A stretch of DNA of 63,997 nt, the filler included, from Stramenopiles sp. TOSAG23-6 (taxonomy: Eukaryota), in assembly GCA_900128565.1 (NCBI GenBank). It is 13 parts of 13 records of this genome, joined end to end, with 100 filler letters (N's around TTAATTAATTAA, not from the genome) between each part and the next. Parts side by side here need not be neighbours in the genome. Positions count along the whole stretch, not along the records: positions 59,396 to 63,997 come from LT637116.1; 12 more parts are not named here. One strand, written 5' to 3'. The notes under the pieces are model-generated. The model searched no databases and was not told the origin of the DNA. It worked only from the letters and a program-made list of their open reading frames with translations. This document shows positions 6,878 to 63,997 of this stretch, piece by piece. Every line of letters starts with the position of its first letter. Within the stretch, counting starts at the first letter, position 1. Position numbers and translations under genes: made by a program.

Positions 6878-9376
6878 ATGGGAATCGCTGATTTTGAAGG
6901 AGAAGAAAGAGAGTCTGATTATGGTACTATTCTTAAAGTTGCTGGGCCCCTTGTTATTGCTGAGAAAATGAAGGGTGCAGCAATGTACGAACTTGTGAGG
7001 GTTGGCTACGTAAAGCTTGTCGGTGAAATCATTAAGTTGGAACGCGACACAGCTTATATTCAGGTTTATGAAGATACATCTGGTTTAAGTGTAGGTGACC
7101 CTGTATTGCGTAAACGTCAGTTGCTAAGTGTTGAATTAGGCCCTGGTATCATGAATTCCATTTACGATGGTATTCAACGGCCTTTGGACACAATAGAACA
7201 GGTTTGTAATTCGTCCTTCATTCCTCGTGGTGTTGACGTGCCTTCNCTAAGCCGTGATAAGTTATGGAATTTCAAACCTCTTAACTTTTCTGAAGGAGAG
7301 CCAATATCCGGAGGATCCGTGTTTGGTGAAGTGTATGAAAATGAAATTTTCACTTCCCACAAAATCATGTATGCTTTCAACCTTCAATTTCAAATTCATT
7401 TTTTTTATACAAAATTTTGTACCTAAGGTTTTCTTTTGTGACATATTTTCCAAAAATACATGGTCCCTCCTAACTTATTTAATGGTGGTGGTACAGTGAC
7501 GAAAGTGTATGGGAACTTAAGTGATGGCCATGATGAATGGAATGTGGACGAACCTGTTCTCGAAGTATTAGATGAAGTCACTCGCAAGAAACACACCTGT
7601 ATGTTATTTTTTTGGTACGAAATTTTGTACCTAATGAAATTTTTTTTTTTGAATTTTTAACCCTACCCCTACATTTATTTTTTTCAATATGGATTTGTTT
7701 TTTTAAAAATTATACCTAAAACAATTTGAAATTTGAAATATTTTTTCGCATTACATTAACTATGGCACACTTTTGGCCTGTTCGTATTCCTAGACCAGTC
7801 AAGGAAAAATTGGCTGGTGATTCTGCTCTCATTACTGGGCAGCGTGTCATCGATGTATGTGTTCAAGTGTTCAAAGAGACTAATTTCATTTTTTTTTTCT
7901 TTTTTTTTTCATTTTTTTTTTCTTTTATTTTTCTTTTTTTTTTCTTTTTTTTTTCTTTGAAAATTGTATACCAAACTTTTTTTTTATCCAAATATATATA
8001 TATATATATATATTTCACAATACATGTACTATTTCCATCAGTCTTGGGAGGTACATGTGCAGTTCCTGGAGCTTTTGGATGTGGGAAAACAGTTATTTCA
8101 CAAGCTCTCTCGAAATTTGCAAATACTGATGGTATTATATATGTTGGCTGTGGTGAACGAGGCAATGAAATGGCTGAAGTCTTGAACGATTTCCCAGAAT
8201 TAAAAATGGAATTCCCAAGAGGAAGTGGTAAGCAAGTTGGTGTAATGAATCGTACCTGTTTAGTAGCAAACACATCAAATATGTACGTTTTTATCATCAA
8301 TTTCCAAATTTNTNTTTTTTTATAAAAATTTCGTGCCTAACAAAAAAAATATAAAAAAAACATATTTTTTCACAATGTATGCCCGTAGCTGCACGCGAGG
8401 CTTCAATTTACACTGGTATTACTCTCGCCGAATATTATCGTGATATGGGACTCAACATTGCGATGATGGGTGACTCAACATCTCGTTGGGCAGAAGCTCT
8501 TCGTGAAATTTCTGGACGTCTCGTACGTTTTCATTTCAATTTCGAATTTATTTTTTTTTTCATACGAAATTTTGTACCTAACAAATTTTTTTAGATTTTT
8601 GAAATATTTTTCACAATACATGGGGAAATGCCTGCTGATTCTGGATATCCTGCATATTTGGGCGCTCGTCTTGCAGCATTTTATGAACGTGCTGGGTGCT
8701 GTAGTTTACTGGGGAGTCCTGATCGGCGTGGAAGTGTTACGGTGGTTGGAGTATGTTTTATTTTTTTCAATTTTTTATCTAAATGTTTTTTTCGTACGAA
8801 ATTTTGTACCTAAAGATTTTTTTTTGAAATGTGTTTTCACAATATATGCTGTCTCTCCACCTGGTGGAGATTTTTCAGATCCTGTCACTTCGGCCACACT
8901 AGCTATTGTTCAAGTATTTTGGGGACTGGATAAAAAACTTGCACAACGTAAACATTTCCCTTCCTTGAATTGGTTAACATCCTACACGAAATATGAAAGT
9001 GTTTTGCTACCTTATTTTGAAAATATTCAAGCAGGGTATAAAGACCTCCGTGCCACGTGTCGTCAAATTCTTCAAATAGAAGATTCTCTTCAGGAGACTG
9101 TATGTTTTATTTTTTTTTAACAAAAAAATCGATTTGTTTTTCGTACGAAATTTTGTACCTAACAAATTTTAAGTTTTTTTTTTCAAATATTTTTCCAAAA
9201 AACATGTTCAATTGGTTGGAAAAGATTCATTGTCCGAAGATCAAAAAGTTGTTCTCGAAACTGCGAAAATTATTCGAGAAGATTTCCTTCAACAAAATGC
9301 TTTTACGGAGTATGACTACACATGTCCAATTTATAAATCAGTTGGCATGCTACGTGTCATCATTCACTTTTATCAT
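6878..9376 (+). CDS. ATP6V1A: V-type ATPase catalytic subunit A, 3'-truncated. Exons 6878-7368, 7462-7598, 7757-7854, 8026-8282, 8381-8522, 8622-8750, 8848-9099, 9206-9376
   Basis: GAFGCGKT P-loop, [34 protein letters not shown] and GAVSPPGGD are restored on joining the exons. Confidence 0.97.
7369..9205 (+). other. Seven GT-AT introns: 7369-7461, 7599-7756, 7855-8025, 8283-8380, 8523-8621, 8751-8847, 9100-9205
   Basis: Boundaries are fixed by conserved V-ATPase A residues; all start GTAYG and end CAT or TAT. Confidence 0.9.
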
Positions 9377-9501
9377 GTACGTTCTCGTATTACATTAGGG
9401 TTAGTTTTTTTTTTTTTTTTTTTTTTTAAACCCAAAATTTTTTTTTTTTTTAAAATTTTGTTCCCAAAAATTTTTTTTTTTTTTTTTTTTTCACAATACG
9501 G

Positions 9502-9972: not shown

Positions 9973-11704
9973 GGGTTTTACATCCACCGAAGTTGAATTT
10001 TTAGTTAGAGAATCTGATACTGATGGTGATGGATCCGTTAACTTTTATGAATTTGCTCCCCTATGTTATGACATGCTTGTAGAGGTTATTGCAAAACAAT
10101 TACCAGATGAAGAAGAAGAAAGAATAGCAAATCAAAAGTTGATGGATGCGAATAAAAAAAAACTTGCCAAATTACTACAAAAACGATATCGAGGATATCT
10201 AGGTCGCCAAAAATCAAAGCAGCGCCGAGCATATCTAAATCGTGACTATAAAAAAAACGACAAAGTTGAAGTTTTATACGTATCAAATGGGTTTTGGTAT
10301 CCTGCCACTGTAGTTAAAAGGTACGCGGGTGGTTTAGATTCTTTTGGAAATTCTAGACTAGTGAACTCTTATAAAGTTCGTTGGTTGGTTGATAATTCCA
10401 TAGATGATAATATACCGCGTCGTAGAATGCGTGAAGGTAATGAACGACATTGGATTCTACATGAACGTTTGAAAGAGAAAGCTCGGATTGAGGCTAAAAT
10501 GGAACAGTTACGAATGGAAGTAGATAGAAAAAAGAAACGGAAAGAAGAACAATTAAAAATGATAGAAAGTTTTTGGGAAGCTGGATTCTCTGGCCCTCTT
10601 TTCCAAGTACAATACTCTGGCGAAACAGATGGGAAAACTGGTATTAGACACGGTGTAGGTAAAATAACTTGGCCAAATGGGGATATTTATGAAGGGGAAT
10701 TCAATAATGGCCTAAGACATGGCAATGGGACAATGTCGGGAAGAAAAGAAGGATCTCGCGAGGGATATATTTACAGAGGTCAATGGAGGAATAGTTTAAA
10801 ACATGGATTGGGTAGAGATGTACGTTTTTATCACTTATTCCAAATGTATTACTTACATGTATTGTTTAAGAATGTATCATTTAAATGTATCATTTAAATG
10901 TATCATTTAAATGTATCATTTAAATGTATCATTTAAAAATGTATTGCTTTACATTGTTCAAATTTTGTAATGGTATAATAACTTAACACCATTTTTGTGA
11001 CATATATGTTTTACTCAATATGAGTATGGTTCATGTGGATTTTATGAAGGTAAATTTTGTGATGGATTATATTCAGGGAAAGGCACACTGGTAACAACAA
11101 GTGGGGTCTATCAAGGACATTTTGTAAAAGGACAAAAAGAAGGCAAAGGAAGAATGAAATGGACATCTGGTGCATCATATGATGGTATGTGGCATAATGA
11201 TAAATTGCATGGCAGAGGACAATATATAGGGCGTAATCCAAGTACGTCTTTCATCATGAATTTCAAGTTTTAATTTCAAAAATAACCCTAATTTCTAAAA
11301 AAATTCTAAACAATTTGAATTTCTATTTTTTCACAATATATACACAACAAAGCAATATGATGGATTTTGGGAATGTGGTATTCGTTGCGGAACTGGTACT
11401 CAGGTGTATGGTAATACTATCGATCAACAAACATTTGTATTGAAAGAAGTGCTCAAGAACAAAAAAGATGTTATCCCTTTAAAATATCAAGGTGACTGGG
11501 TAGATGGTCAATGGCATGGTATGTACGTTTTCATCATTATTTTTTTTTTAAAGTTGTTTAAAAATGTTTTGTACCTAACGTTCTTTTTACTGAAAAACGA
11601 TAAAACGATCACAATACAGTGGTATTATTACACATATAGTTAATATGAAAAAGACTTCTAGACGGGGAGAATTTAGGTTAGGCAAATTGCACCATTGGAT
11701 GTAG
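9973..11704 (+). CDS. EF-hand + IQ + Tudor-like + MORN-repeat protein, 5'-truncated. Introns 10820-11021 (GT-AT), 11242-11341 (GT-AT), 11523-11619 (GT-AG)
   Basis: DTDGDGSVNFYEF; LQKRYRGYLGR; repeated YEGEF..G.RHG.G continuing across the joins. Confidence 0.8.
10871..10936 (+). repeat. Intronic 13-bp tandem repeat (AATGTATCATTTA), about 5 copies
   Basis: Directly visible. Confidence 0.85.
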
Positions 11705-16758: not shown

Positions 16759-17457
16759 ATTCCTCCTAAAAAACTTGTAAANACTGGGAAGACNGANAGA
16801 AAATATAACTGATAGTTCATTGCTCNTGTGGTCATGAAAGACGTTAAACAAAAATGTATTTNGAAANCATATNTTTTTTTAAATTTTTTGTTAGGTACAA
16901 AATTTTCATACAAAAAAAAAAAAAAAAAAACCCTAACCCTAGTAACCCACATTTGTAAACCAAGTCCCATTCACTTGACCAAAAAAAGTATTCGAATCAT
17001 TATCTTTCATTACCAAGAGAAAACCTGCAGTAAAACTACATGAACATATTATAACTCCATAAATCCAATTACGACGAGTGACGTTACCAAAAGGCGTTCG
17101 TAGATTGATGAATAAGTCGACAGCAATTGCCGTAAGACAACAGGATGAGCCAGTCAGACAAAACTGTGTAAAGAAACTGGCCAATTTACCCTCAGGGCCA
17201 CTGCAATAACATACATCATCTTTAAGTTCCGTGTTTATCACACTCAAGTTAAAGCCAATATCATAGCACGCTTTAAGNAACAGAAGTGGGTTTGGNTGTC
17301 GACGAAANGAAGGTCTAAGCATATAGGTTAATATAACAAACAAAGCACAAAAGCAAGATATTGTATTTCCAGTCACTGTAATCCTAACCATTGAAAGAGT
17401 ATTGAATACCAAGTATGTGTCTTTGTATTCATCATTTGTGCAGTGTAATAGATCCAT
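16759..17457 (-). CDS. GPCR-like 7TM receptor, N-terminal ~5 helices (GT-AT intron 16854-16950)
   Basis: Multiple TM segments; ISCFCALFVILTY, FFTQF, AVDLFINLRTPF. Confidence 0.65.
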
Positions 17458-19741: not shown

Positions 19742-19912
19742 NNNNNNNNNNNNNNNNNNNNNNNNNNNNNNNNNNNNNNNNNNNNTTAATTAATTAANNN
19801 NNNNNNNNNNNNNNNNNNNNNNNNNNNNNNNNNNNNNNNNNCATTTTCATTATGAATATTGTACCAATTTTGAAATTATTTTTTTTTTTTTTTTTTAAAA
19901 AAAATTTTTAAC

Positions 19913-19946
<34 letters not shown>

Positions 19947-19961
19947 TTTTTCACAATATAT

Positions 19962-21494
19962 AATAGCAACAAGTAATCGCCCCCCAAATGATTTATATTT
20001 AGATGGTTTAAATAGAGAATATTTTTTACCTTTTATTCAAACTTTACAATCACATTGTAAATTATATGACATGAATGAAATGAAAAATATAAAAATGATG
20101 GAAAAAACAGACCCTAACCCTAACCCTAACCCTAATCAAACAACTTTCAAAAAAAATAAAACAATGAAAAAAATTGATCATAGGAGACTTTCTACTGCTT
20201 TTAGTGATACGAATGAAACTTCATTATATAGATTTCCATTATCTAAAAAAACATCAATTGAATTTTATGATTTTTTAAATCGTAATTATGTAAAAAATTT
20301 GTATGTTTTTTTTTATATTTTCAATTTTTTTTTTTGGTTTTCATACGAAATTTTGTACCTAACAATAATTTTTTATTATCCAAAAAAAAAAAAAAAATAT
20401 TTTTAACAAAATATAAAATTTACAAAAATGAGTATACCAACCATCTTTGGTAGACATGTTACTATTGAAAATGGCTGTATTGATGGTGGAATTTGTTATT
20501 TTAGTTTTGAAGAAATTTGTGGGTACTCTAGTGATAAGAATGCCACGTGTTATCGTGCGATTTGTGAGCATGTTTGTTCTCATCATTTAATTTTTTTTGA
20601 AATGTTCAGAATTTTCAAAAAAAAAATTTTTTTTTTTTTTGAAATTTAAATTGTATACAAAATTGTATAGTAATACCTAACAAAAAAAAAATAGAATTTG
20701 ATATATTTTTTTACTCTACATTTCAATATAATTGCAATTGATGGAATACCAATATTAAATGCATTACCATCATGGGTCGTTCCATCAAGTGGTGGTCATA
20801 ACGCAGCTAGGAGATTTATTACAATGATTGATCAATGTACGTTTTTATTTTTTTTTCAATTTTTTATCGAAAAATTTTTTCATACGAAATTTTGTACCTA
20901 ACGAATTAAAATTTTTTTTTTTCACAATAAATGTTATGAAAGAGGAAATTTGTTATTATGTACTGCTAATGCAAAACCTGATGAATTGTTTATTTCAGAT
21001 GCAGCTATTAGTGCAACACCAAGTCCAATGGTGACTGATATTGATTATAATCCTTTAATGGAAACTGAAAGAAAGGATTTTATGAGTACAAATAAAAAAA
21101 ATAAAAACAATAAAAAAAATGAAAAAAATGAAAAAAATAAAAAAAATGAAAAAAATGAAAAAAATGAAAAAAATACTACAAATGACACAAACAATAATAT
21201 AGACCCATCACAAAGTGTACTAAATAATGATTCTAGAAATATTGCATCAGTAAAAGAATTAGAATTTGCTTTTCAAAGAGCTGTACGTTTTTCATATGAT
21301 GAATTTCGAATTTATTTTTTTATATCATGAATTTCGAATTTATTTTTTTCATAAATTTTTTTTTTGTATTTCACATTTTTTTTTGACCAATTTCAAATGT
21401 AAAATATTTCTTCACAATACACACATCTCGTTTAATTGAAATGAATAGTACAACGTATGTAGAAAAATGGAAAGAAAAATATAGAAATGAATAA
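19962..21494 (+). CDS. AFG1: AFG1/ZapE ATPase, C-terminal part. Introns 20301-20414, 20572-20721, 20837-20932 (GT-AT) and 21283-21422 (GT-AC)
   Basis: IATSNRPPNDLY, FLPFI, ARRFITMIDQCYE and FAFQRATSRLIEM are restored. Confidence 0.88.
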
Positions 21495-34836: not shown

Positions 34837-35906
34837 TTAATATATACGAATGCTCTATTAAACGCTCCATTATAAAAGAGACATAGCACAAAAATTGTTG
34901 AGACATTATTAGCAAGATATGTGGGCACATTTCATTTTTTTGAGCTTTGAGATCTTCCGAGATGTTTGTATTGTGAAAAAATATTTTTTTTTTAATTCGT
35001 TAGGTACAAAATTTACTATGAAAAAAAAATGGTATGTAAAAATGCACGATTTGAAAACTTACATTTACCAACATATTTAATCAACGAATTTAAAACTATA
35101 AAATTATGTGGTTTTGATAATAATTCGCCGATATGGCCGATACGATATCCAAGAACATGTATAAATGATAGACAGACAAACACAAATTTAATTTGAACGG
35201 AAATTTTCTTCTCAGAGCATTTGGAATTGTTAGGATTACTAGGGTTGGGGCTCCCGATACATTTGAGTTCACTAAATACTTCAAATAGCTGGTGTAAAAG
35301 TAATGGACCAGTTTCATCTGGTATATGAGGGCATAACATCACGTGTACAATAAATGGAACTAATATTCGAAATATCATCGCGTGTTGCTTCGTCTCATTG
35401 AACAAAAGATGCACATCAGATAGAATGTTAGCTGATGTTGATGGACAGACACGAATCAGCGAAATAAAGGGATGTATATTTTCAGTAATGGAGTACTGTG
35501 GAAGTGACTGGTTATTATCATACGCTGTTTCAACTTCGCATATAAGTAGTTGACGAATTGCAGCTGAAACATGACAAGACGACATGCCTGGTTCAATCTT
35601 GGTGGCTGCATCTAAAAGAGAAGTGTAACACTGTAACGCTGAAAGCACGCCCATCTCGTAAAGCTGTATTAACCCAAAACATGCTGCGTGTGCAACAATT
35701 GGAACCTCATAGAATGATGCGCAAAATTCACAGAGAAGCTTAAAATATGCGGATTTCATTGTGATCGTCTGTGGTGTCTGTGGTAACTTTGAGCTTTCAT
35801 ATATTAACTTTAGCAATTGACGAACTGATTCACGCTGGATATTTCTTTGAACAGTCCGTGAACGCACACGAAGGAGACTAATAATTTTATCATAATCCTT
35901 TTTCAT
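34837..35906 (-). CDS. HEAT/ARM-like protein N-terminus (possibly focadhesin-like); intron about 34966-35062
   Basis: Helical 280-aa exon with HPFISLI; the frame continues after a family intron. Confidence 0.5.
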
Positions 35907-36218
35907 TATTTCAAAGAGATGTTGCAGTCCTTTCTAATATTTCTAATTCTTTGGGATGAATATTTATAATAGTATGAGCCAGAAGGACTGTCGTAAATAC
36001 CTGTAGCTGTTCGTACAAAAGGTACGAGTCACTCTACGACTAGTCAAATCAAATCTGTTGACATCATTATTGACAATTCACATTAAGCGTCACAATTTTT
36101 CAGATTTTCGTGTGTGAAAAACGGCGCAACATCGGCGCACAACATCGGCGCGGCGCGACAGACTGTCATTTTTTTACTTAGACGCCATTTTCCTTTTTTC
36201 TTGAAAATTGAATCAACA

Positions 36219-37427
36219 ATGTCTTATCTGGAAAGTATTGGATTATATCAACGGAAGGATGGATCCTTTTACGAGAATGGTTGTGCTGTACCATTTGTTA
36301 TTCGTGCTCAAATTGTAGATTTGCTGTTTAAAAGTAGGATTGAAAAGCAAGAGAAAAACTTTAACAGTGTTCACTACATTGAGAATGAAGAATTCTATAT
36401 TAGAGACAAATTTCATGTATGCCGCAAAACATACACAAAGTACTTTGATGCGTTTCTTACAATATTTTCAGACGCTTCAAAGTATTTCAATATTAGAAAT
36501 AAGGATGAATTTTTGAGAGTATACGCTTTAAGCATAGATTCACTACGACCTGACGACAAGAGAGAAAGATCACTACGAAGTGAAGTTATAGATGTTGTGT
36601 TGAGGGATATAGTAGAAAGAGATAGAAGTGGTTTAATTAGAGAATATCAAAATGATCTTGGTGAAGCAACTGGTGTATGGCTTTGTGAATCTGCAATCTG
36701 TGTAAGGCTTAAGAAGTTGGGATTAACTAGAAAAAAACTATATAAAAACTTTGCTGAGAGATTAACTGAAGAGATTCTAGAAGACTTAGAGAGATATGGT
36801 CAGGTTTTAAACGCGATAGACCACAAGAGAATACATTACTTTGATGAATCTGGTTTCTGTGGTCAGCTTATAGGGAGGACATATGCTCGAAATGATCCGG
36901 GTAGAAATACAACCAGTGATACAGTTAATCCCAGTCGAACTCATTATACATTAATGGGTGTTACTTCAATACGGAAATCAAAACCTGCTTTGCTATGGAA
37001 GACAATGAAAGGTGGTGCCAAGCGAAGTGATATGCTCAAATTCCTATGCTCTAAAAGGGTTCTTTCTAGTTTCAAACGTGGAGATGTCCTTGTTTTAGAT
37101 AATTGCCGTACACACAAATTTCAAGGGCAGGAGGCCCTTGAAGAAGTATATGGTTTAATTGGGTGCCATGTTTTCTTTTTACCTGCATATCATCCGATGT
37201 GTAATGGGATTGAATATCTTTTTGGGTGGTTAAAGAAAATACTCCGCCGTGTCGACACATTCACTAGAGATGACGAATCTCTACTTACCTATGTTGAATA
37301 CTATTTGCGAAAAGTAAATACAAAATTAATTAAATCATTTTACAAACTTGCTGACAAAAAATTGAAAAAAGAAATGAACCTACTAGATACCAGATTGGAG
37401 GCTATTAGGAATGTACAAAATGAATAA
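36219..37427 (+). CDS. DDE transposase (DD37E) with paired-domain-like N-terminus
   Basis: YFDESG, VLDNCRTH, FLPAYHPMCNGIE; 37 residues lie between the second D and E. Confidence 0.92.
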   Translation: MSYLESIGLYQRKDGSFYENGCAVPFVIRAQIVDLLFKSRIEKQEKNFNSVHYIENEEFYIRDKFHVCRKTYTKYFDAFLTIFSDASKYFNIRNKDEFLRVYALSIDSLRPDDKRERSLRSEVIDVVLRDIVERDRSGLIREYQNDLGEATGVWLCESAICVRLKKLGLTRKKLYKNFAERLTEEILEDLERYGQVLNAIDHKRIHYFDESGFCGQLIGRTYARNDPGRNTTSDTVNPSRTHYTLMGVTSIRKSKPALLWKTMKGGAKRSDMLKFLCSKRVLSSFKRGDVLVLDNCRTHKFQGQEALEEVYGLIGCHVFFLPAYHPMCNGIEYLFGWLKKILRRVDTFTRDDESLLTYVEYYLRKVNTKLIKSFYKLADKKLKKEMNLLDTRLEAIRNVQNE

Positions 37428-40162: not shown

Positions 40163-43100
40163 ATGAAGACAGAAAACATTACCGTGTCTGTTCGTTTTCG
40201 TCCCATGAATGAGCGGGAGTTGAATAAAAATGCAAAGACGTCGTGGGGTTGGTATGTTTTATTTCCACATTAAAGTATTTGCGTGTTGCATTATGTACTG
40301 GTTTGTGTTTCTATCGAGTCAAGCTGTGAAAATACTTTCTAACATCAATTTGTATTCATTTGTATTATTTTTTTGTCCTCCTATTTTACACTACACAGTA
40401 TGACAGAGCATAAAAGTGTGTGTCGCAAAGATAAAGATGGTAAATTAGATACATCAATGGCATTTTCATATGATCATGTATTTAATGGTGATGATGGGAC
40501 AAGTCATGTATACAATCAAGTGGCAAAACCGATTGTTCAACAATTCTTGGCTGGCATCAATGGAACAATTTTTGCTTATGGTCAAACCTCAAGTGGAAAG
40601 ACATATACAATGCAGGGTGATGGTACAGTAAAAGGTTGTGGAATTCTACAAAACAGTGTTACTGAGCTATTTGAATGTATCAAGCAAAATCAAAAACGTC
40701 AATATATTATTCATGTCTCATATATTGAAATATATAATGAAAATATTAGAGATCTTCTACGAAGCGACGGACCAATGTGTAAAGTACGTGAAGATAGAGA
40801 TCGCGGTATATATGTTGAATCATGTGATTTATTAGTACTTAATGCTTCTGATGTGTTATCTCTATTATCTCGTGGTGAAAGAAATCGACACGTGGCATCA
40901 ACTGCAATGAATGATACATCGAGTCGGTCACATACTATTTTTAAAATGTCTCTGGAATCTCAAGAATTAGAAATTAATTCAGAGACTGGAGAGTCAACTA
41001 CAATAGGTCCCGTGCTACAAAGTTCTCTAAGTCTTGTCGATTTAGCAGGATCAGAAAATGCAAAAAACACGCGCGCTAGTGGAACTCGACTTCGAGAAGG
41101 TGGAAATATTAATAAATCATTACTTTCATTATCTCGTGTAATGTGTCAAATATCAGATGGACATNCTCATGTACGTTTTTATTAGACATTTCAAATGTAT
41201 CATATCATGTAAATGTATTTTTTTTACAAAGAAAATTTTGTAGCTAACGAATTTCATACTTGAAAGATATTTTTTCACAAAACATCCAAGTTTCAGAGAT
41301 TCAAAATTAACTTGGATACTAAAACCATCTTTAGCTGGTAATTGCCGAACTGCATTAATTGCATGTGCAACTTTAGCTGATCAATTTGTAGAAGAAACTC
41401 AATCAACGTTAAAATTTGCAAGTCGTGCTAAAAACATTAAAACAAGTGTTGCAGTGAATATGTATGTTTTATTTTTTTTTTTCAAATTCGATTTTTTTTC
41501 GTACGAAGTTTCGTACCTAACGATTTTTTTAGATTTTTTTTTAATATTTTTCCAAAATACATGATTTTAGATGATAAAGCAAGAATGAATCAATTGAATA
41601 AAGAAGTGAAGCACTTACGTGCAAAACTACGTGTTTTTGAAGAAGGAAATTCAAACTTCAAAAAGAGATTAAGTGGTGGCAGTACAAAAGGATTGATGAG
41701 ATTTGATGATGATGATGAAATGACGCATAATCAAAAATTACAAACACAATTACATTGTTCTGAGAATGAAAAGTTGAAGCTTGAGCAAAAAGTAAATGAT
41801 CTAAAAAATATGATTGTTAAAAATGGGTTTTTATCTCGTACTAAACATTCACAAAATGGAGGCATGAAACGATCTGGAGAGTGGATGGCACCTTTAAGTG
41901 TTGAAAAATTGCGAGGAGCGAACAAAAGGCGTAAGAAAATTCGTGGCACTTGTATGATTTATTTTCATCATTTTAATTTTAAATGTATTCTTCAAATGTA
42001 TTTTTTTGTATCATGTCTAACAAATTTCAAATTTGATATACTTTTTAACAATATCTGGTATAATTTATCTGATAATTTTAATTGGCGAGATGACATTGTT
42101 GGTGGTGATAAAGATGAATTTAAGAGAATTAAAGCATCTCATTCACAAGACACGAAATCAATGTTGGATGGAAAGTTTGCTAAATTAGCTAATGGTTGTG
42201 ATGAGAATGAAAATGTTGTAAATACTAAAAAATCCGAAATTCCAAAAGTAAAAAGAAGCGTAAGTTTTGACGTTAATTTTGAAAATGATAATTGTAAAAC
42301 ACCAACACAAAAAAAAACACCAGTGTCTCGTTTTTTTAGTGTACATGCAGCATTAACACCAAGTGCAGATACACCACGTAAAGCAGCTTTAAAACAAGCT
42401 CTTGTTAATATGTACGTTTTCATCATGAATTTCAATGCAAATGTTTTGTTTCCATTTTTTTTTTATTGTTGAAAATTTTATATCTAGGAATTTTTGTAAC
42501 GTTTTCTTTTATGATCTATTTTTCACAATACATGGAAGAGAAATTAGAAATTGCAGATGCCAAGTCTGTAGAATCGAGCAAAATCGTTGAAGATATGAAA
42601 ACAAAATTAAACGAAATTCAAGAAAAGGCTGAAATGGCTGAAACGCAAAAAAAAGATTTAGAGAAAGCAAATGCTGAATTGAATGCTGCTGAATTAGAAG
42701 TAGAGAGAGCACGTATGTTTTGTGTATCCCTATTTTGAAAAATATTTTTCAAATTTCAAATGTATCTATTTTTCAAATTTACAATTTCTGATGTCTCCTA
42801 CATTTCTAATATATTATTTTTTCTAATACATTTCAAATTTATGTATATATATATCCCCGAAACTATAGTAATGAGAGCTGAAGATTTGAGTGGAAATTTG
42901 TTGGAAATTCATCAAGCAAAACAACTTGAAGAAGAAATTGAACAACATGAAAATGAAATTCAAAGACATGAAGATGAAAAAAGGTTGGTTGAAATGGATC
43001 AATATCGCAAAAGATTAGCACAAATGGAAGAAGAAAAAACTAATTTAAATGAAAAAAACTGCGAAAATGAAAAAAATTTTGATAAGATAAATTTGAAATT

Positions 43101-44474: not shown

Positions 44475-44715
44475 NNNNNNNNNNNNNNNNNNNNNNNNNN
44501 NNNNNNNNNNNNNNNNNNTTAATTAATTAANNNNNNNNNNNNNNNNNNNNNNNNNNNNNNNNNNNNNNNNNNNNAAAAAAACAAAAAAAACAAAAACTTT
44601 TTATGTATTTTTTTTTCATCATGACATTTTTTTTTTTTTTTTTTTTTTCATACGAAATTTCATACCTAACAAATTTTTTTTAGATTTTTTTTCGAAATAT
44701 TTTTTCACAATATAT

Positions 44716-44841
44716 AATAATAAAAGTGTTATTACACTATATTCAAAATGGGATTCACACGAAATGGTACGAATTATTGGTAGAAAGAGAGCAAAACATA
44801 TGCTGCACTCAAAAGCAAAAGATGCGTTTTTGTTTTGTTGA
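44716..44841 (+). CDS. Small last exon missed by the ORF track (NNKSVITLYSKWDSHEMVRIIGRKRAKHML...FC)
   Basis: Follows the family acceptor CACAATATAT; open frame to TGA. Confidence 0.45.
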   Translation, partial: NNKSVITLYSKWDSHEMVRIIGRKRAKHMLHSKAKDAFLFC

Positions 44842-45294
44842 TTTTAAAATTTCTTAGGTACAAAATTTCCTATGAAAAATAAATTCGATTTTTTTGTTTA
44901 AAAAAAAAATTTTACAATTTTGTTTTATATAATAATATATGATTTGTTAACATAGTATTTAATAAAAACTAAAAATAAAAATTTTACATTTTTGTTTTTT
45001 ATTTACAAATTGTTTTTGATAAAACAATGAATGAATTTTTTTTTTTCAATTTTGATTTTGTTTTCGTACGGAATTTTGTACCTAATGGGTTTTTTTTGAA
45101 ATATTTTCCAAAATACATAATAAAGAATGAATGATTCATTATATATATAATTATTTTCATTTACCAATTTTGATATTGAATGGTGTTATTTTGGGTTGCG
45201 GTTTTAAATTTTTTGATTTCGCTTCTTTTTTTGATTCTTCTTCTTTAATTTTTATATTGTTTTTTTATTTTTCCCAATTTTCGTATTGAATCTA

Positions 45295-59291: not shown

Positions 59292-59752
59292 TTTTNNNNN
59301 NNNNNNNNNNNNNNNNNNNNNNNNNNNNNNNNNNNNNNNTTAATTAATTAANNNNNNNNNNNNNNNNNNNNNNNNNNNNNNNNNNNNNNNNNNNNTTTTC
59401 AGGATCAATTTTAAATTTATTTATTTTTCATACGAAATTTTGTACCTAACAAAAACTTTACTACAAAAAATATTTTTCCAAAATACATGGATACCATGAA
59501 TATTCAATCAGAGAAAAAATAGCAAGCTCTTGTACAGTTCAAAGTAGTATCTCAGATTCTAGTAGTATCAGATGTTTATCAACGGATGAAATCTATTCCA
59601 GTATTCACAAAATATATAGTCCTACTCATCTTTGTGGGTGTCACGATTGTCAGTGTATGTATGTTTTAATTTTTTTTTTGTATGATTTTTTTTTCGTACG
59701 AAATTTTGTACCTAACGAGTTTTTTTTTTTGAAATATTTTTCCAAAACGTAT

Positions 59753-62508
59753 TTCTCCTAAAAAGGTCCAGTGAAACTCGAGGTGAAGAACTAGATGATT
59801 TTGATTATGCTTTATTATCTGGAATCTTTGTTGCAAGTGCTAGATTGTTACATGAAAAAAAGGTACGCAAATCTAATTTAGATAGCCATGAAAAGTTGAA
59901 AAAAGATTTGGGTACAATTTTAATTAAGAATCTCGTGCCATTGTACGTTTTCAATTTCATTTTGTTTTTATTTTTGGTACGAAATTTTGTACCTAACGAT
60001 TTTTTTACTTAAAAAAATATTTTTCACAATACGGACTCCGTAAGTTTCAGGCTGATAGTGCCACCATTGAACAATTAGTATCTTTGCCTCGATATTTTGA
60101 CATTGAAAGTTATGAAGTTCATCGTCAGCAAAAAAGTTTCTCTAGACTTTTAAACATGTTGTCAGATTTATATTTAAAACACGGAGATGAACGCGTTTTA
60201 CAATCAATTTCAAACACATTTTTATTTCTAAAAGATGGAAAGCATTCTCTAAAAGACGAAGTCGTTGTACTCGCTCAGAAACTCACAAGTAATATAGTTA
60301 ATAGAGTTCAAGAACTACTACGTGATGATGAGACCGATTACCAAAAGGCACAATCTGTTAAAGAAACGTCATCAAAAATGAAGACTAAGGCACGCGCATC
60401 AAGTGTGAAAATTTCAAAAGAGAACGACAAAGAGACTAACCTTCTATGTTTCCTACGCCGTTTGCGAGCTTTATTTGAAAAAATTGATGTCAGTTCGAGT
60501 CTCCCCGCTAATCTATATAGCGCTTTACATACAGTCATTTCTCGACGCACTGAGGATGGCCTCCATTTACGTTCATATAGAGAAGATCCGCATTCTGGTG
60601 TTGTTGTGCAATCACTTTCTATTTTAGCGACTACATTGGGTCATGTATGTTTTTATCTTCAATTTCAAATGTATCAAACTTATTTTATTTTCGTACGACA
60701 TTTTGTACCTAACAGTTTTTTTTCGAAAAATACTTTTCACAATACAGGAAGTGTATACACTCCAGCGTCTTTTGGAAGATCAGTCAGATTCTGTCGGTGT
60801 TACCGGTGGCGATGATAATGAAGAAATGAAAGAAACCGATGAACTAGATGAAGCCCGGCTCATTGTAGAATCGTTAGGCAGCTACCGTGATAATATCAGT
60901 AATCGTTTATGCTCTATCATGGCAATTGATAGTTCCGATTGTCAGTCAATCAAGGAAATAAATCTCATCCGTGCATATAAACTTCAAGCATATTCTATCG
61001 GATTTGATATGCGCTCACTTTTTAGTGAAGCTGCTTCAAACGGTAGTGGACCGTATCAGAAAGATTCAACATATAATGAAAAAGGTTTCATATATCCACT
61101 CAAATCTCTTCAATATGACATGCCACCAACACTTATCCGTGATTGTCATCGATTTTTCAATGAAGAAATGGTCACAGGACGTGAGCGAAATGCAAAGCTG
61201 CTTTTAAGAAAAGAGAGAAAGAAAAAAGGAGATACATTTGCAGAAAAAATGGCAAAAGCTGAGCGTAATACAGCATTACTTCGATTATCAGATTCAGAAA
61301 TTTCAAAGACGGTATTTCCTCTTTTCCCAGCATTAGCTCGAGTTCTCAACTCTAATCCTAAGGCAAAACGTGAAGCAGCTGTTCTTGTATCTTTAATTAA
61401 TGAATCAGGAAAAACTGGATCCGGTATTGTAAATGATTGTACAAAGACATTACAGCGTCGGGTCGGTGGTAAAGAATCATATCTAAAAGTTCAAATGGCG
61501 GCACTTCGTCATACATATCGACAATTGCAAACATTAGCTGAAACCGGATCTGATGAAGATGAGGATTCCGATAATGAAGAATCGAGTTCTGCTTCTAAAG
61601 TATACCAAGCATATACAAATCTCCTGTCTCTCGCTAGTCGTCTTTCTTCGTTCTATGGAGTCGGTACTGTACCTGTAAATCTCCGCGTCGCATGGGAAGA
61701 TCATATATTAAGTGGTGTAAAGTTCGCGTTTCAGCAACTACCTAATCAATTAGGATTCCTCGATGTGATGGATTATTATGTGCGTAAATTGCCAAAAGCT
61801 GCCAAATCCAGTGTATTGAAAAAGTTTGAACTTTTGGCAGATGAAATGGGTGTCATAAAAGCCGCGCGTGAGAATCAGTTGAAAGTTCGTGCTCAAGGCA
61901 ACCATTCTGATGATGAAGACGATGATGACGATGACGTAAGTGAAAGTATGTGGGCTGCGTATACTGCTTTTCGTGACAGACTTGAAGAAGATTGTCAAAC
62001 AAATAAACGTAAACGTGGTGGTGTCGTTACTAAAGAATCGTTACATAAAAATGATGAAAGTCAACAAAATATTCGTCCGAGTAAAATATCTCGGAGATCT
62101 ACTGATGGATCGAGAATATCTCGAGAAAACAATGATACAGAATTTGCTATAAACAATCTCAGNGATGATGAGTCGGATAATGGTTTTGGTATAGAGTCAA
62201 AAAGTGCAAGTGCGCGTTTGATTGAAGCTGTAGACTCTGATGTGAGTGATTTTGATAATTCTATCGATCATGAATTTGGTAATTCTATGAGCAATAATCG
62301 CCGAAAACGACAGAAGACACTTAAACCTGAGTTATCATTTGCGAAGCATCGACGTCATAGTACACATAGGTCATCATATGATACATCTAGTGCTAGTTTA
62401 AAAAGTGGTCAGAAACGGTCCGCTGTGGATATTGACTCTGATGATTCAAGTGTAAATGAAGGAGATTACGATGGGCTTCCTGAACCTGTCATGAGTCAAG
62501 AGTTCTAA
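59753..62508 (+). CDS. Cohesin subunit STAG/SCC3, C-terminal part. Introns 59943-60034 (GT-GG) and 60645-60747 (GT-AG)
   Basis: LVPLLRKFQAD, LPRYFDIESY, KHGDERVL; acidic tail. Confidence 0.7.
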
Positions 62509-62817
62509 AATGTACATAAATTATATGAAATTACAAAAAATAACGTGTAAAAGAAGATATGACAACATTAATACCTCCTTTGACTTTATACTGTCTTTGT
62601 GGGTATTATATGCAAAAGCAACACATTATAAAGGATTATCGTAATCACAATACCATTATGTTATATATTCTAAACCATAGATAAAACATAAGATATACTA
62701 AACAATTGGTGCGACGAATAATTGTATTTTTATTTCTTCATTGAAAAGAAAACTATTTGTTAAAATAAAAACATGTATTTCTTGACTATAATGTTCTCGT
62801 AATAACTTTAGCCAAAG

Positions 62818-63997
62818 ATGGTGAAAGCTCGCTGTCTTGCACTAAATGTCTTGAGCTCTATATCCAAGATAGAAGCAGGTCGAGAAGCAATTATAAAAGA
62901 GAGCGTGGTACCGATACTATTTGGCTTGTTATCCGATTCAAGAGCAGAACAACGTTTCGCAGCTCTTCAGGTAGTTAACGTTCTTTCGGGATTTAAAAGT
63001 GGAAGAAAGGCGCTTCTTGCTGGAGAATTTCCAAAAAGTGCTCTACTATCAGCTTTGAGCGACGAGTCTAGTGGTGGAGCTCTCCAACTATGTATGCTCC
63101 AATCAATAGCAAATTTGACGGAGATGTCAACTGGAATTGATCTGATACTGGAGTGTAATGCATTACCAATTATTATACAAATACTGCGTGGATCCAACCA
63201 AAACGAAAAAGAAGAATCTGATGAAGTGGAAAAAGATTCTACCTTTCGTCGGAAAGTATTGATTGCGACACTTCAAACTGTCTGGAATCTTTCACACGAC
63301 GCTAAAGGTAACGAAATGTGTATGAAAGAGGATAGTGTTGCTGCTATATGCAAATCAGATGCGAAAATTCTTGAAAAAGCACCTGAATGGTCCATTGTAG
63401 AGAGATGTGCGAGTGGTGCGTACGTTTTCAAAATTGAATTTCCAATTTTTTTTTCTTAGAAAATTTCATACCTAACAAAACAAAATATATATATTTTTCA
63501 CAATATATTTTAATGGCATTGTCCACTTCCTTAGGTGGTAAAGTGTGCATATCAGAAACTTCAGAAGGAGTTGATGTCTTATCTGCACTAGCAGCAAGAG
63601 AAGATAAATCAATATCAACAAATGCATGGCAGTGTATGCGAATGACTGCGAAATATCTTCCTGTTGGACCTAGATTTGTCCTTTCCCTACTCGATCAAAC
63701 AAAACTACTCGTTGATGTCTTTGGTGTCGCTGCTTTACATCATCTTGGAAATCTTCTCAATGACAATGAAGGTCGAAGTGAGATTGCAGAATTAGCAGCA
63801 GATGCTATTGAGCTTATTACACGAAATGAGGAAGGACAAAAAGCAGCACAACAGGTATTATACATGGAAATAGGTCTTGCTCGAGTATTGTGTAATAATA
63901 AAAGTAATAGAGCTCAAAGAAGTGCTGCATCTGCACTTAATTGTGTCTGTACTGGAAACAGTGGTAAGGGCTGTTGTCGAGAACTAAACAAGGCGAT
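62818..63997 (+). CDS. Armadillo-repeat protein (RSPH14-like); GT-AT intron 63420-63508; runs off the window
   Basis: ARM-like helices; the join gives CASGALMALS. Confidence 0.6.

Follow-up and report, generated by a model that had tools for sequence, protein, structure and literature searches.

A GT..GG intron in the cohesin SCC3 gene of Stramenopiles sp. TOSAG23-6 belongs to an introner-like family whose members mostly end in AT

The window analysed here is a stretch of 63,997 nucleotides (nt), filler included, of Stramenopiles sp. TOSAG23-6 (assembly GCA_900128565.1). Its last piece, positions 59396-63997, harbors a cohesin gene, SCC3/SA, and the subject of this work is an intron of this gene that opens with GTACGT (GTACGTTTTC) at 59943 and closes with GG (CACAATACGG) at 60034. 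The initial annotation had read it as a GT-GG intron and had proposed that its acceptor is set by the position after a CACAATA box and not by its last two bases. The gene has the following features around this intron:

59659..59750, plus strand: preceding intron, probably GT..GT, end CCAAAACGT (from open-frame phase and the starts of RNA contigs)
59751..59942, plus strand: upstream SCC3 exon, ending ..LVP + TT (from translation; aligned to the SCC3 relative P0241; RNA contigs are 100% identical over 59751-59935)
59943..60034, plus strand: target intron, GT..GG, 92 nt, in the SCC3/SA gene (nhmmer family member, E 1.7e-14; junction from homologues and a register test)
59943..59951, plus strand: 5' splice site GTACGTTTT of the GTACG subfamily (from the sequence and alignment A1)
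59976..59997, plus strand: conserved central block GGTACGAAATTTTGTACCTAAC (from alignment A1)
60020..60034, plus strand: 3' block TTTTTCACAATACGG, with the junction after 60034 (from the sequence)
60035..60644, plus strand: downstream SCC3 exon, starting (TT)A CTC CGT = L LRKFQAD (Pfam PF24571 HEAT_SCC3-SA, E 2.8e-21)
60645..60747, plus strand: next intron, GT..AG, end CACAATACAG (gap-free against P0241)

Excision at these borders gives the junction ...CCA TT|GTACGTTTTC ... TTTTTCACAATACGG|A CTC CGT AAG TTT CAG GCT GAT. SCC3 relatives were collected by a profile-free scan of 1.84 billion representatives, which yielded 73 sequences; the closest, P0241, has 1402 amino acids (aa) and is 54% identical. 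When aligned to P0241, the acceptor at 60034 keeps the frame open and reaches the top score of 624, compared with 609 (−3 nt), 605 (+3), 612 (−6) and 599 (+6) when the acceptor is shifted. The product is collinear with the relative (..LIKSLTPLLRKFQADAAT.. in P0241, ..LIKNLVPLLRKFQADSAT.. in the spliced window, no gap), and in the same scoring no other in-phase acceptor was found near 60034. The AGs that follow at 60044 and 60050, which had been dismissed before as out of phase, both yield stop codons and scores of only 136 and 139. Likewise, the join LVPL|LRKFQAD on which the intron had been proposed recurs in the relatives as the pattern L-P-x-L-L-x-K-[FY]-x-x-D. Among 21 alignments to SCC3 homologues, 19 cross the junction; offset 0 is the best in 18 of these and tied in one (P0253), and 14 of the 19 have no gap within +/-8 residues. 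Pfam had no match for the 63-aa upstream exon alone, and a protein search with the exon 60036-60644 had none at near length. As judged from the homologous proteins, the GG junction at 59942|60035 is confirmed at the protein level, and the GT-GG intron of the initial annotation is borne out.

The target intron is one member of a family. Twelve copies were used to build a profile, and with it nhmmer recovers about 45 copies, some complete and others partial, from the two strands of the 13 contigs that make up the window. The copies lie in many unrelated genes (V-ATPase A, SCC3, kinesin, MAT1, AFG1 and others), and also in apparently non-coding sequence and in opposite orientation (44575-45120). 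Their common layout is GTAYGTTTT, then TCGTACGAAATTTTGTACCTAAC, a T-run, and C(A/C)MAATAYNN at the 3' end. In alignment A1 this appears as three conserved blocks separated by T or A runs of variable length, with a middle block TTTTTC(G/A)TACGAAATTTTGTACCTAAC and a 3' block (G)AAATATTTTT-C(A/C)MAATAY-NN. Throughout the alignment the branch-site-like TACCTAAC is followed by T-runs at the sequence level; in the target intron it lies at 59990-59997, inside the central block, which the minimum-energy fold of the intron shows as a local hairpin. All 25 complete copies start with GTA[CTA]G, and the GT is invariant. CACAATAY occurs 23 times in the window (6.08 expected; none of 100 shuffles reaches 23). 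The GG acceptor of the target copy also sits within a small predicted hairpin (ACGGA/UCCGU, 60030-60042) that straddles the junction and is unique to this copy.

The variants of the two intron ends are linked: GTACG is paired with CACAA in 11 copies and never with CCAAAA, and GTATG is paired with CCAAAA in seven and with CACAA in three (Fisher p 0.001). At the sequence level this points to two subfamilies that would descend from master elements. P0125, an open frame of 243 aa on a 4963-nt contig that is 91.9% identical to the V-ATPase A gene of the window, is uninterrupted at the introns 8523, 8751 and 9100, and this suggests that these three are recent gains in the lineage of the window. Of 25 copies, 15 have the dinucleotide AT directly before the donor, a hint of preferred insertion sites. 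A target-site duplication as the source of the 3' AT was considered and rejected, since it fails in copies such as 8523, 8751, 59943 and 63420; in 8523-8621, for example, CTC stands upstream and CAT at the end, and the codon before 8523 is one for Leu, which never ends in AT. We regard the family as introner-like and as the source of most introns in the window. Four further introns (40252-40398, 42713-42868, 10820-11021 and, on the minus strand, 26629-26459) share the GTAYGTTTT start and have interiors unrelated to the family. For two of them the putative end is an AG that is in phase (ACACAG, CTATAG), a third may close with TTTACTTTCTAT (AT) without a CACAATA box, and one carries the tandem repeat AATGTATCATTTA five times.

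Further family introns on which the argument draws are:

7369-7461, 7599-7756, 7855-8025, 8283-8380, 8523-8621, 8751-8847 and 9100-9205, plus strand: seven GT..AT introns of the V-ATPase subunit A gene (tblastn; spliced-model alignments)
9377..9501, plus strand: assembled 'intron' between V-ATPase exon 8 and an AFG1-like exon, with the second CACAATACGG end at 9492-9501
21283..21422, plus strand: family intron ending CACAATACAC (AC), with open frames of 381 nt upstream and 69 nt downstream
34966..35062, minus strand: family intron GTAAGT...CACAATACAA (AA), with open frames of 870 nt upstream and 252 nt downstream

In the window 35 acceptors were scored: AT forms the terminal dinucleotide in 28, AG in three, GG in two, and AC and AA in one each, so that the final base is T 28 times, G five times, and A and C once each. 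Position −2 is A in 33 of the 35, which matches the conservation of the motif itself. Most copies end in CAT or TAT, and the conservation is not confined to CACAATA, because similar conservation extends over the entire last 24 nt. The list of endings given in the initial annotation (AT, AG, GG, AC, CT, AA) therefore stands with the exception of CT, which is found at none of the 35 acceptors. For the AC and AA introns, an alternative end four nucleotides further on (ACAT) was rejected as out of phase. Both of them precede the same eight exon bases, ACATCTCG (21413-21430; 34958-34975 on the minus strand). Each of the four acceptors with an end other than AT or AG is followed by A, compared with nine of 35 overall. 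Two CACAATACTC sites (14991-, 63885-) are coding sequence without a T-run.

The register of the family is exact. When donor and acceptor are moved in step, the nine homology-checked proteins all remain unchanged at shift 0 alone; register −1 creates a stop in the target gene and +1 a stop at 7599-7756. Provided that splicing uses homologous positions in all copies, the intron thus runs exactly GT...NN. Under this rule the open-frame phase is kept at 16 of 22 junctions and at two of two further ones (binomial p 3.6e-05). The six misses are 8523 and 8751, which are in phase by homology, 9377, which is chimeric, 12301, which is ambiguous, and 16758 and 59659. At the kinesin junction 41170|41286 the Pfam profile resumes within one residue (272 to 279).

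Further evidence on the rule comes from the gene at 6878-9376, which encodes V-ATPase subunit A and not AFG1. Its spliced product is 93.4% identical over 558 aa, with no gap, to P0314, a close relative (628 aa, 2129-nt contig), and it runs without gap through all seven junctions against both P0314 and P0126 (639 aa, 2258-nt contig). In 8523-8621 a TAG located 27 nt before the junction is skipped; its use would add nine residues to an invariant motif. The junction of 7599-7756 is kept despite the degenerate box CGCATTACAT, and that of 8283-8380 is kept with CACAATGTAT. A rule by which the first Y-R-U after the T-run is used was rejected, as a UGU is skipped in 8283-8380. AG is therefore not the cue for these introns: AT is used at 28 of 35 acceptors and upstream AGs are skipped in homology-checked introns.

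The initial annotation had also pointed to a second CACAATACGG end, before an AFG1 exon at 9501. The sequence is present there, but it provides no second example of a GG intron. The exon before this 'intron' is exon 8 of V-ATPase A, so that 9377-9501 is a chimeric join and the AFG1 acceptor is unusable. The join runs from exon 8 (..IIHFYH) through T-runs and telomere-like TTAGGGTTAG / AAACCC into the AFG1-like exon (PF03969, E 4.3e-06, with 26.4 bits slightly below the cut-off of 27). After exon 8 the gene lacks the C-terminal part of V-ATPase A, which spans about 66 aa in relatives. Another contig carries a further piece of AFG1 (19912-20406).

Within the SCC3 gene, the next intron ends in CACAATACAG as had been proposed, and with 60645-60747 removed the product aligns without gap to P0241. 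The preceding intron behaves differently. Its standard family donor is in phase only with 59750 (..CCAAAACGT|AT), whereas the acceptor predicted by the rule, 59752, is out of phase. Two RNA contigs (two runs of one study) begin exactly at 59751, and one of them has 121 extra upstream letters that depart from the intron. The alternative is a donor at 59655 with the acceptor at 59752; the homologues separate the possibilities by score differences of at most 2.

The RNA comes from seawater polyA metatranscriptomes with a share of matching words of 0.05-0.20, mapped on 59396-63997. It holds exon contigs that are 100% identical to the window as well as unspliced, intron-containing contigs, one of which spans 60645-60747. 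RNA joints that did appear were rejected as cross-matches between copies, with short sides located in the repeated intron core. The depth over this core (59396-60011, 60628-60781) runs from hundreds to thousands, compared with 2-8 over the SCC3 exons. It may stem from the large number of copies, from intron retention, from excised introns that are stable or from carry-over of DNA, and is not a measure of copy number; neither this depth nor the stretches lacking RNA cover enter the argument. JGI metagenome contigs contained no match to a 26-nt exon stretch and none to a 20-nt intron core.

We favor, with a probability of about 0.62, the reading that the target is a U2-type spliceosomal intron carried on an introner-like copy, in which an extended 3' signal, rather than a scan for AG, defines the 3' junction. 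Among the features of U2-type introns, the extended 5' GT consensus and a branch-site-like sequence before a pyrimidine tract are present, and the 3' AG is absent in the target. Each copy would bring along a yeast-like 5' site GTAYGTTTT, a branch-site block ..TTTTGTACCTAAC, a U-run and C(A/C)MAAUAY followed by two nucleotides, and splicing would take out the copy from its first G to its last base. We infer the spliceosomal removal of the target copy in vivo, its branch point and a factor that recognises the 3' end. The usual final dinucleotide is A-U, and the GG intron would be a rare variant of the CACAA subfamily that is cut at the homologous position. The proposal that the acceptor is set by position keeps its core, since the junction falls at the last base of the 3' block whatever that base is. 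It needs to be restricted with regard to the last two bases: the A at −2 means that these are not both free and that only the final base is loose. Neither can the last three bases alone define the site, because CAC and CAA each end an intron and yet recur earlier in the box, so that some information on position is required. The 3' junction would rather be placed via the U-run together with the A-rich box and its A at −2, the identity of the final base having little weight. The likeliest agent would be a U2AF-like protein of altered specificity, or a second-step site that tolerates U, G, C and A at −1.

Several observations weigh against this reading. No joint between 59942 and 60035 was found among the mapped seawater RNA, in which cover is about 2 over 60012-60165 in two runs, and the removal of the target copy hence rests on protein homology. 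P0241, in turn, is a gene model from a protein collection (g516.t1) and not a transcript. The 59659 intron was probably cut two nucleotides early, at 59750, and is then an exception to the fixed place, and 16758-16668, which lies in an N-rich stretch, is out of phase. The non-family introns 40252-40398 and 42713-42868 may still use AG; if these ends are real, both endings are in use. The conservation of the 3' block may reflect merely the youth of the copies, and the A at −2 shows that the terminal dinucleotide does matter. Finally, in an assembly that is fragmentary, bears Ns and contains a chimera, the G at 60033 could be an error or a private mutation.

This last point can be extended into an explanation of its own, in which the GG arose in an ordinary CACAATACAG or ACAT acceptor through an error of sequencing or amplification or through a private mutation, GG as such is not specially tolerated, and the allele is spliced poorly or elsewhere. 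The state of the assembly, the thin RNA cover without a joint and the rarity of GG (2/35) would fit. The same ACGG end occurs independently at 9501 and argues against a random error, there is no alternative in-phase acceptor close by, the AC and AA endings are in phase as well, and the RNA mapping, thin as it is at this position, holds no variant at 60033. We consider an artefact improbable. The initial annotation had favored a different account, in which a dedicated factor or small nuclear RNA (snRNA) binds CACAATA/CAAAATA and the cut falls 3 nt downstream. What stands of it is the constancy: in the homology-checked introns the distance from box to junction does not change, the last base varies, and the CAC and CAA earlier in the box stay unused. 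What does not fit a strict ruler is the nearly invariant A at −2, the persistence of the junction next to the degenerate boxes of 7599-7756 and 8283-8380 and the probable early cut at 59750, and the 24-nt conserved region is accounted for by descent of the subfamilies. Given the linkage of 5' and 3' variants, copying of master elements would suffice without any reader of CACAATA. Rfam returned no match and no snRNA on the window. We therefore think such a ruler unlikely, if somewhat less so than an artefact.

The two junctions might also be set together by pairing of the intron ends, with AUGUAU (exon −2 to intron +4) opposed to the terminal AUACAU in a hairpin, as modelled for the non-canonical introns of euglenids, diplonemids and Amoebophrya. 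The consensus ends ATGTAT and ATACAT are indeed complementary, 78.6% of cells are paired in 21 copies, and in the target the upstream TT and the terminal GG could make two U-G wobble pairs. However, shuffled pairs do equally well (78.2%; 235 of 500 are as high), a single cell changes on both sides, and RNAalifold gives no consensus structure. The 8523-8621 intron has TC upstream, is unpaired and yet is spliced in register, and the minimum-energy fold of the target leaves its ends unpaired, which makes this model very improbable. Introns of the U12 type, removed by the minor spliceosome, tolerate unusual 3' dinucleotides (AT, GG, AA) and have their 3' site chosen by position from the branch site; their consensus is RTATCCTT at the 5' site and TCCTTRAY at the branch site, 10-15 nt from the 3' end. 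The choice of the 3' site by position and the unusual ends seen here resemble this behavior. The 5' site is GTAYGTTTT, though, the branch consensus differs, and the CTAAC block is some 30-50 nt away from the 3' end, so that an assignment to this class has little to recommend it and seems even less probable than end pairing. Least credible of all is that the elements are removed at the DNA level, or never removed and the genes broken. Nothing specific speaks for this beyond palindromic, transposon-like ends; polyA RNA libraries hold intron-containing contigs, the elements carry spliceosomal signals, and essential conserved genes are interrupted in perfect register.

Taking the preferred reading of an extended 3' signal one step further, a lineage of marine stramenopiles may have reset the default 3' site of its major spliceosome from A-G to A-U after an invasion by a single introner family, with the register held in the introner-borne box and read by an altered reader of its own, the last base and at times position −2 left free, independently of tunicates. 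We offer this as a tentative idea that we do not hold to be probable. If true, it would be a natural and tractable example of a replaced AG rule.

For the broader context, the pieces of the window are joined by 12 linkers (4868-59395) of the form N44-TTAATTAATTAA-N44, spaced about 4.95 kb apart. The sizes of the pieces fall along the window from 4860 to 4840 bases, in descending order. The window is thus a chain of size-sorted contigs, and genes on the two sides of a linker are unrelated and not neighbours. Fragmentary and containing Ns, the assembly also includes at least one chimera, at 9377-9501; it broke on the intron repeat, as many contigs start or stop within a family copy. A gene for 6-phosphogluconate dehydrogenase (6PGD, 31820-33334) has no introns. 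The nearest named relatives of 6PGD and of V-ATPase subunit A are stramenopiles at 60-80% identity, among them dictyochophytes, Incisomonas, labyrinthulomycetes, oomycetes, brown algae and diatoms. A larvacean source, an idea prompted by the work on Fritillaria, was rejected on these hits. Telomere-like repeats (CCCTAA/TTAGGG) lie within or beside intron copies at 31580-31650, 7650-7670, 9395-9405 and 16880-16900, and those 5' of the 6PGD gene form an inverted pair, CACCCTAACCCTAG ... TAGGGTTAGGGTT. An open frame at 36087-37427 on the plus strand has a DDE_3 endonuclease domain of the Tc1/mariner type (E 1.5e-14) and may be an autonomous transposon.

The GT-AG rule is nearly universal, and the wholesale exceptions in Fritillaria, Amoebophrya, euglenids and some diplonemids are the main natural experiments that reveal what the spliceosome recognises at intron ends and in which ways it is reshaped by transposon-like introners. 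A stramenopile dominated by GT..AT introns would, if true, be an independent case with a canonical, yeast-like 5' end and branch site. Only the 3' end would be altered, so that recognition of the 3' site would be isolated as the variable. Gene finders that demand AG would mis-annotate nearly all intron-bearing genes in this stramenopile and in those related to it. The mostly open-access main texts searched describe neither GT-AT introns nor this kind of introner family in heterotrophic marine stramenopiles, and the available sections of genome papers on uncultured stramenopiles (PMC5778133, PMC3998028, PMC8163842) make no mention of unusual introns.

The following comparisons draw on the sections available of the papers cited. 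In euglenids and hemistasiid diplonemids (PMC12621601) the junction is likewise not set by terminal dinucleotides. Their introns show extensive pairing of the ends and no conserved GT, neither of which holds in the window. Amoebophrya (PMC7789003) is, like our organism, a marine protist in which most introns depart from GT-AG and intronic repeats are transposon-like. There, no terminal dinucleotide dominates, while in the window GT is invariant and AT dominant; the elements there have inverted repeats of 8-20 nt and direct repeats of 3-5 nt, and a hairpin was proposed to bring the exons together, while end pairing lacks support in the window. A closer parallel at the 3' end is found in Fritillaria (PMC13326754), where introns end in AT more often than in any other dinucleotide (44% in F. 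pellucida, 34% in F. borealis), YAY makes up the last three intron bases, an introner origin was proposed and divergent U2AF paralogues bind the non-canonical 3' ends. The frequent 3'AT and the YAT end are shared with the window. Unlike this animal, in which the 5' end is mostly AG and the introns are diverse, the stramenopile window has a 5' GT and a single family. Introners are known from Micromonas pusilla, Aureococcus anophagefferens, dinoflagellates and many aquatic protists (PMC11282704, PMC9860276), and they too are near-identical introns in unrelated genes. Splice signals of their own, subfamilies, positions that appear lineage-specific and copies beyond coding sequence are common to them and to the family described here. 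Target-site duplications or terminal inverted repeats are not universal among introners (PMC9860276). In the sections available, the introner surveys rely on annotated introns and mention only GC and GA 5' sites (PMC11282704, PMC9860276); annotation-based surveys of this kind would overlook the family. The introners described so far in these sources are GY..AG and often take one splice site from a target-site duplication, whereas in the window the 3' end is A-U and is borne by the element itself.

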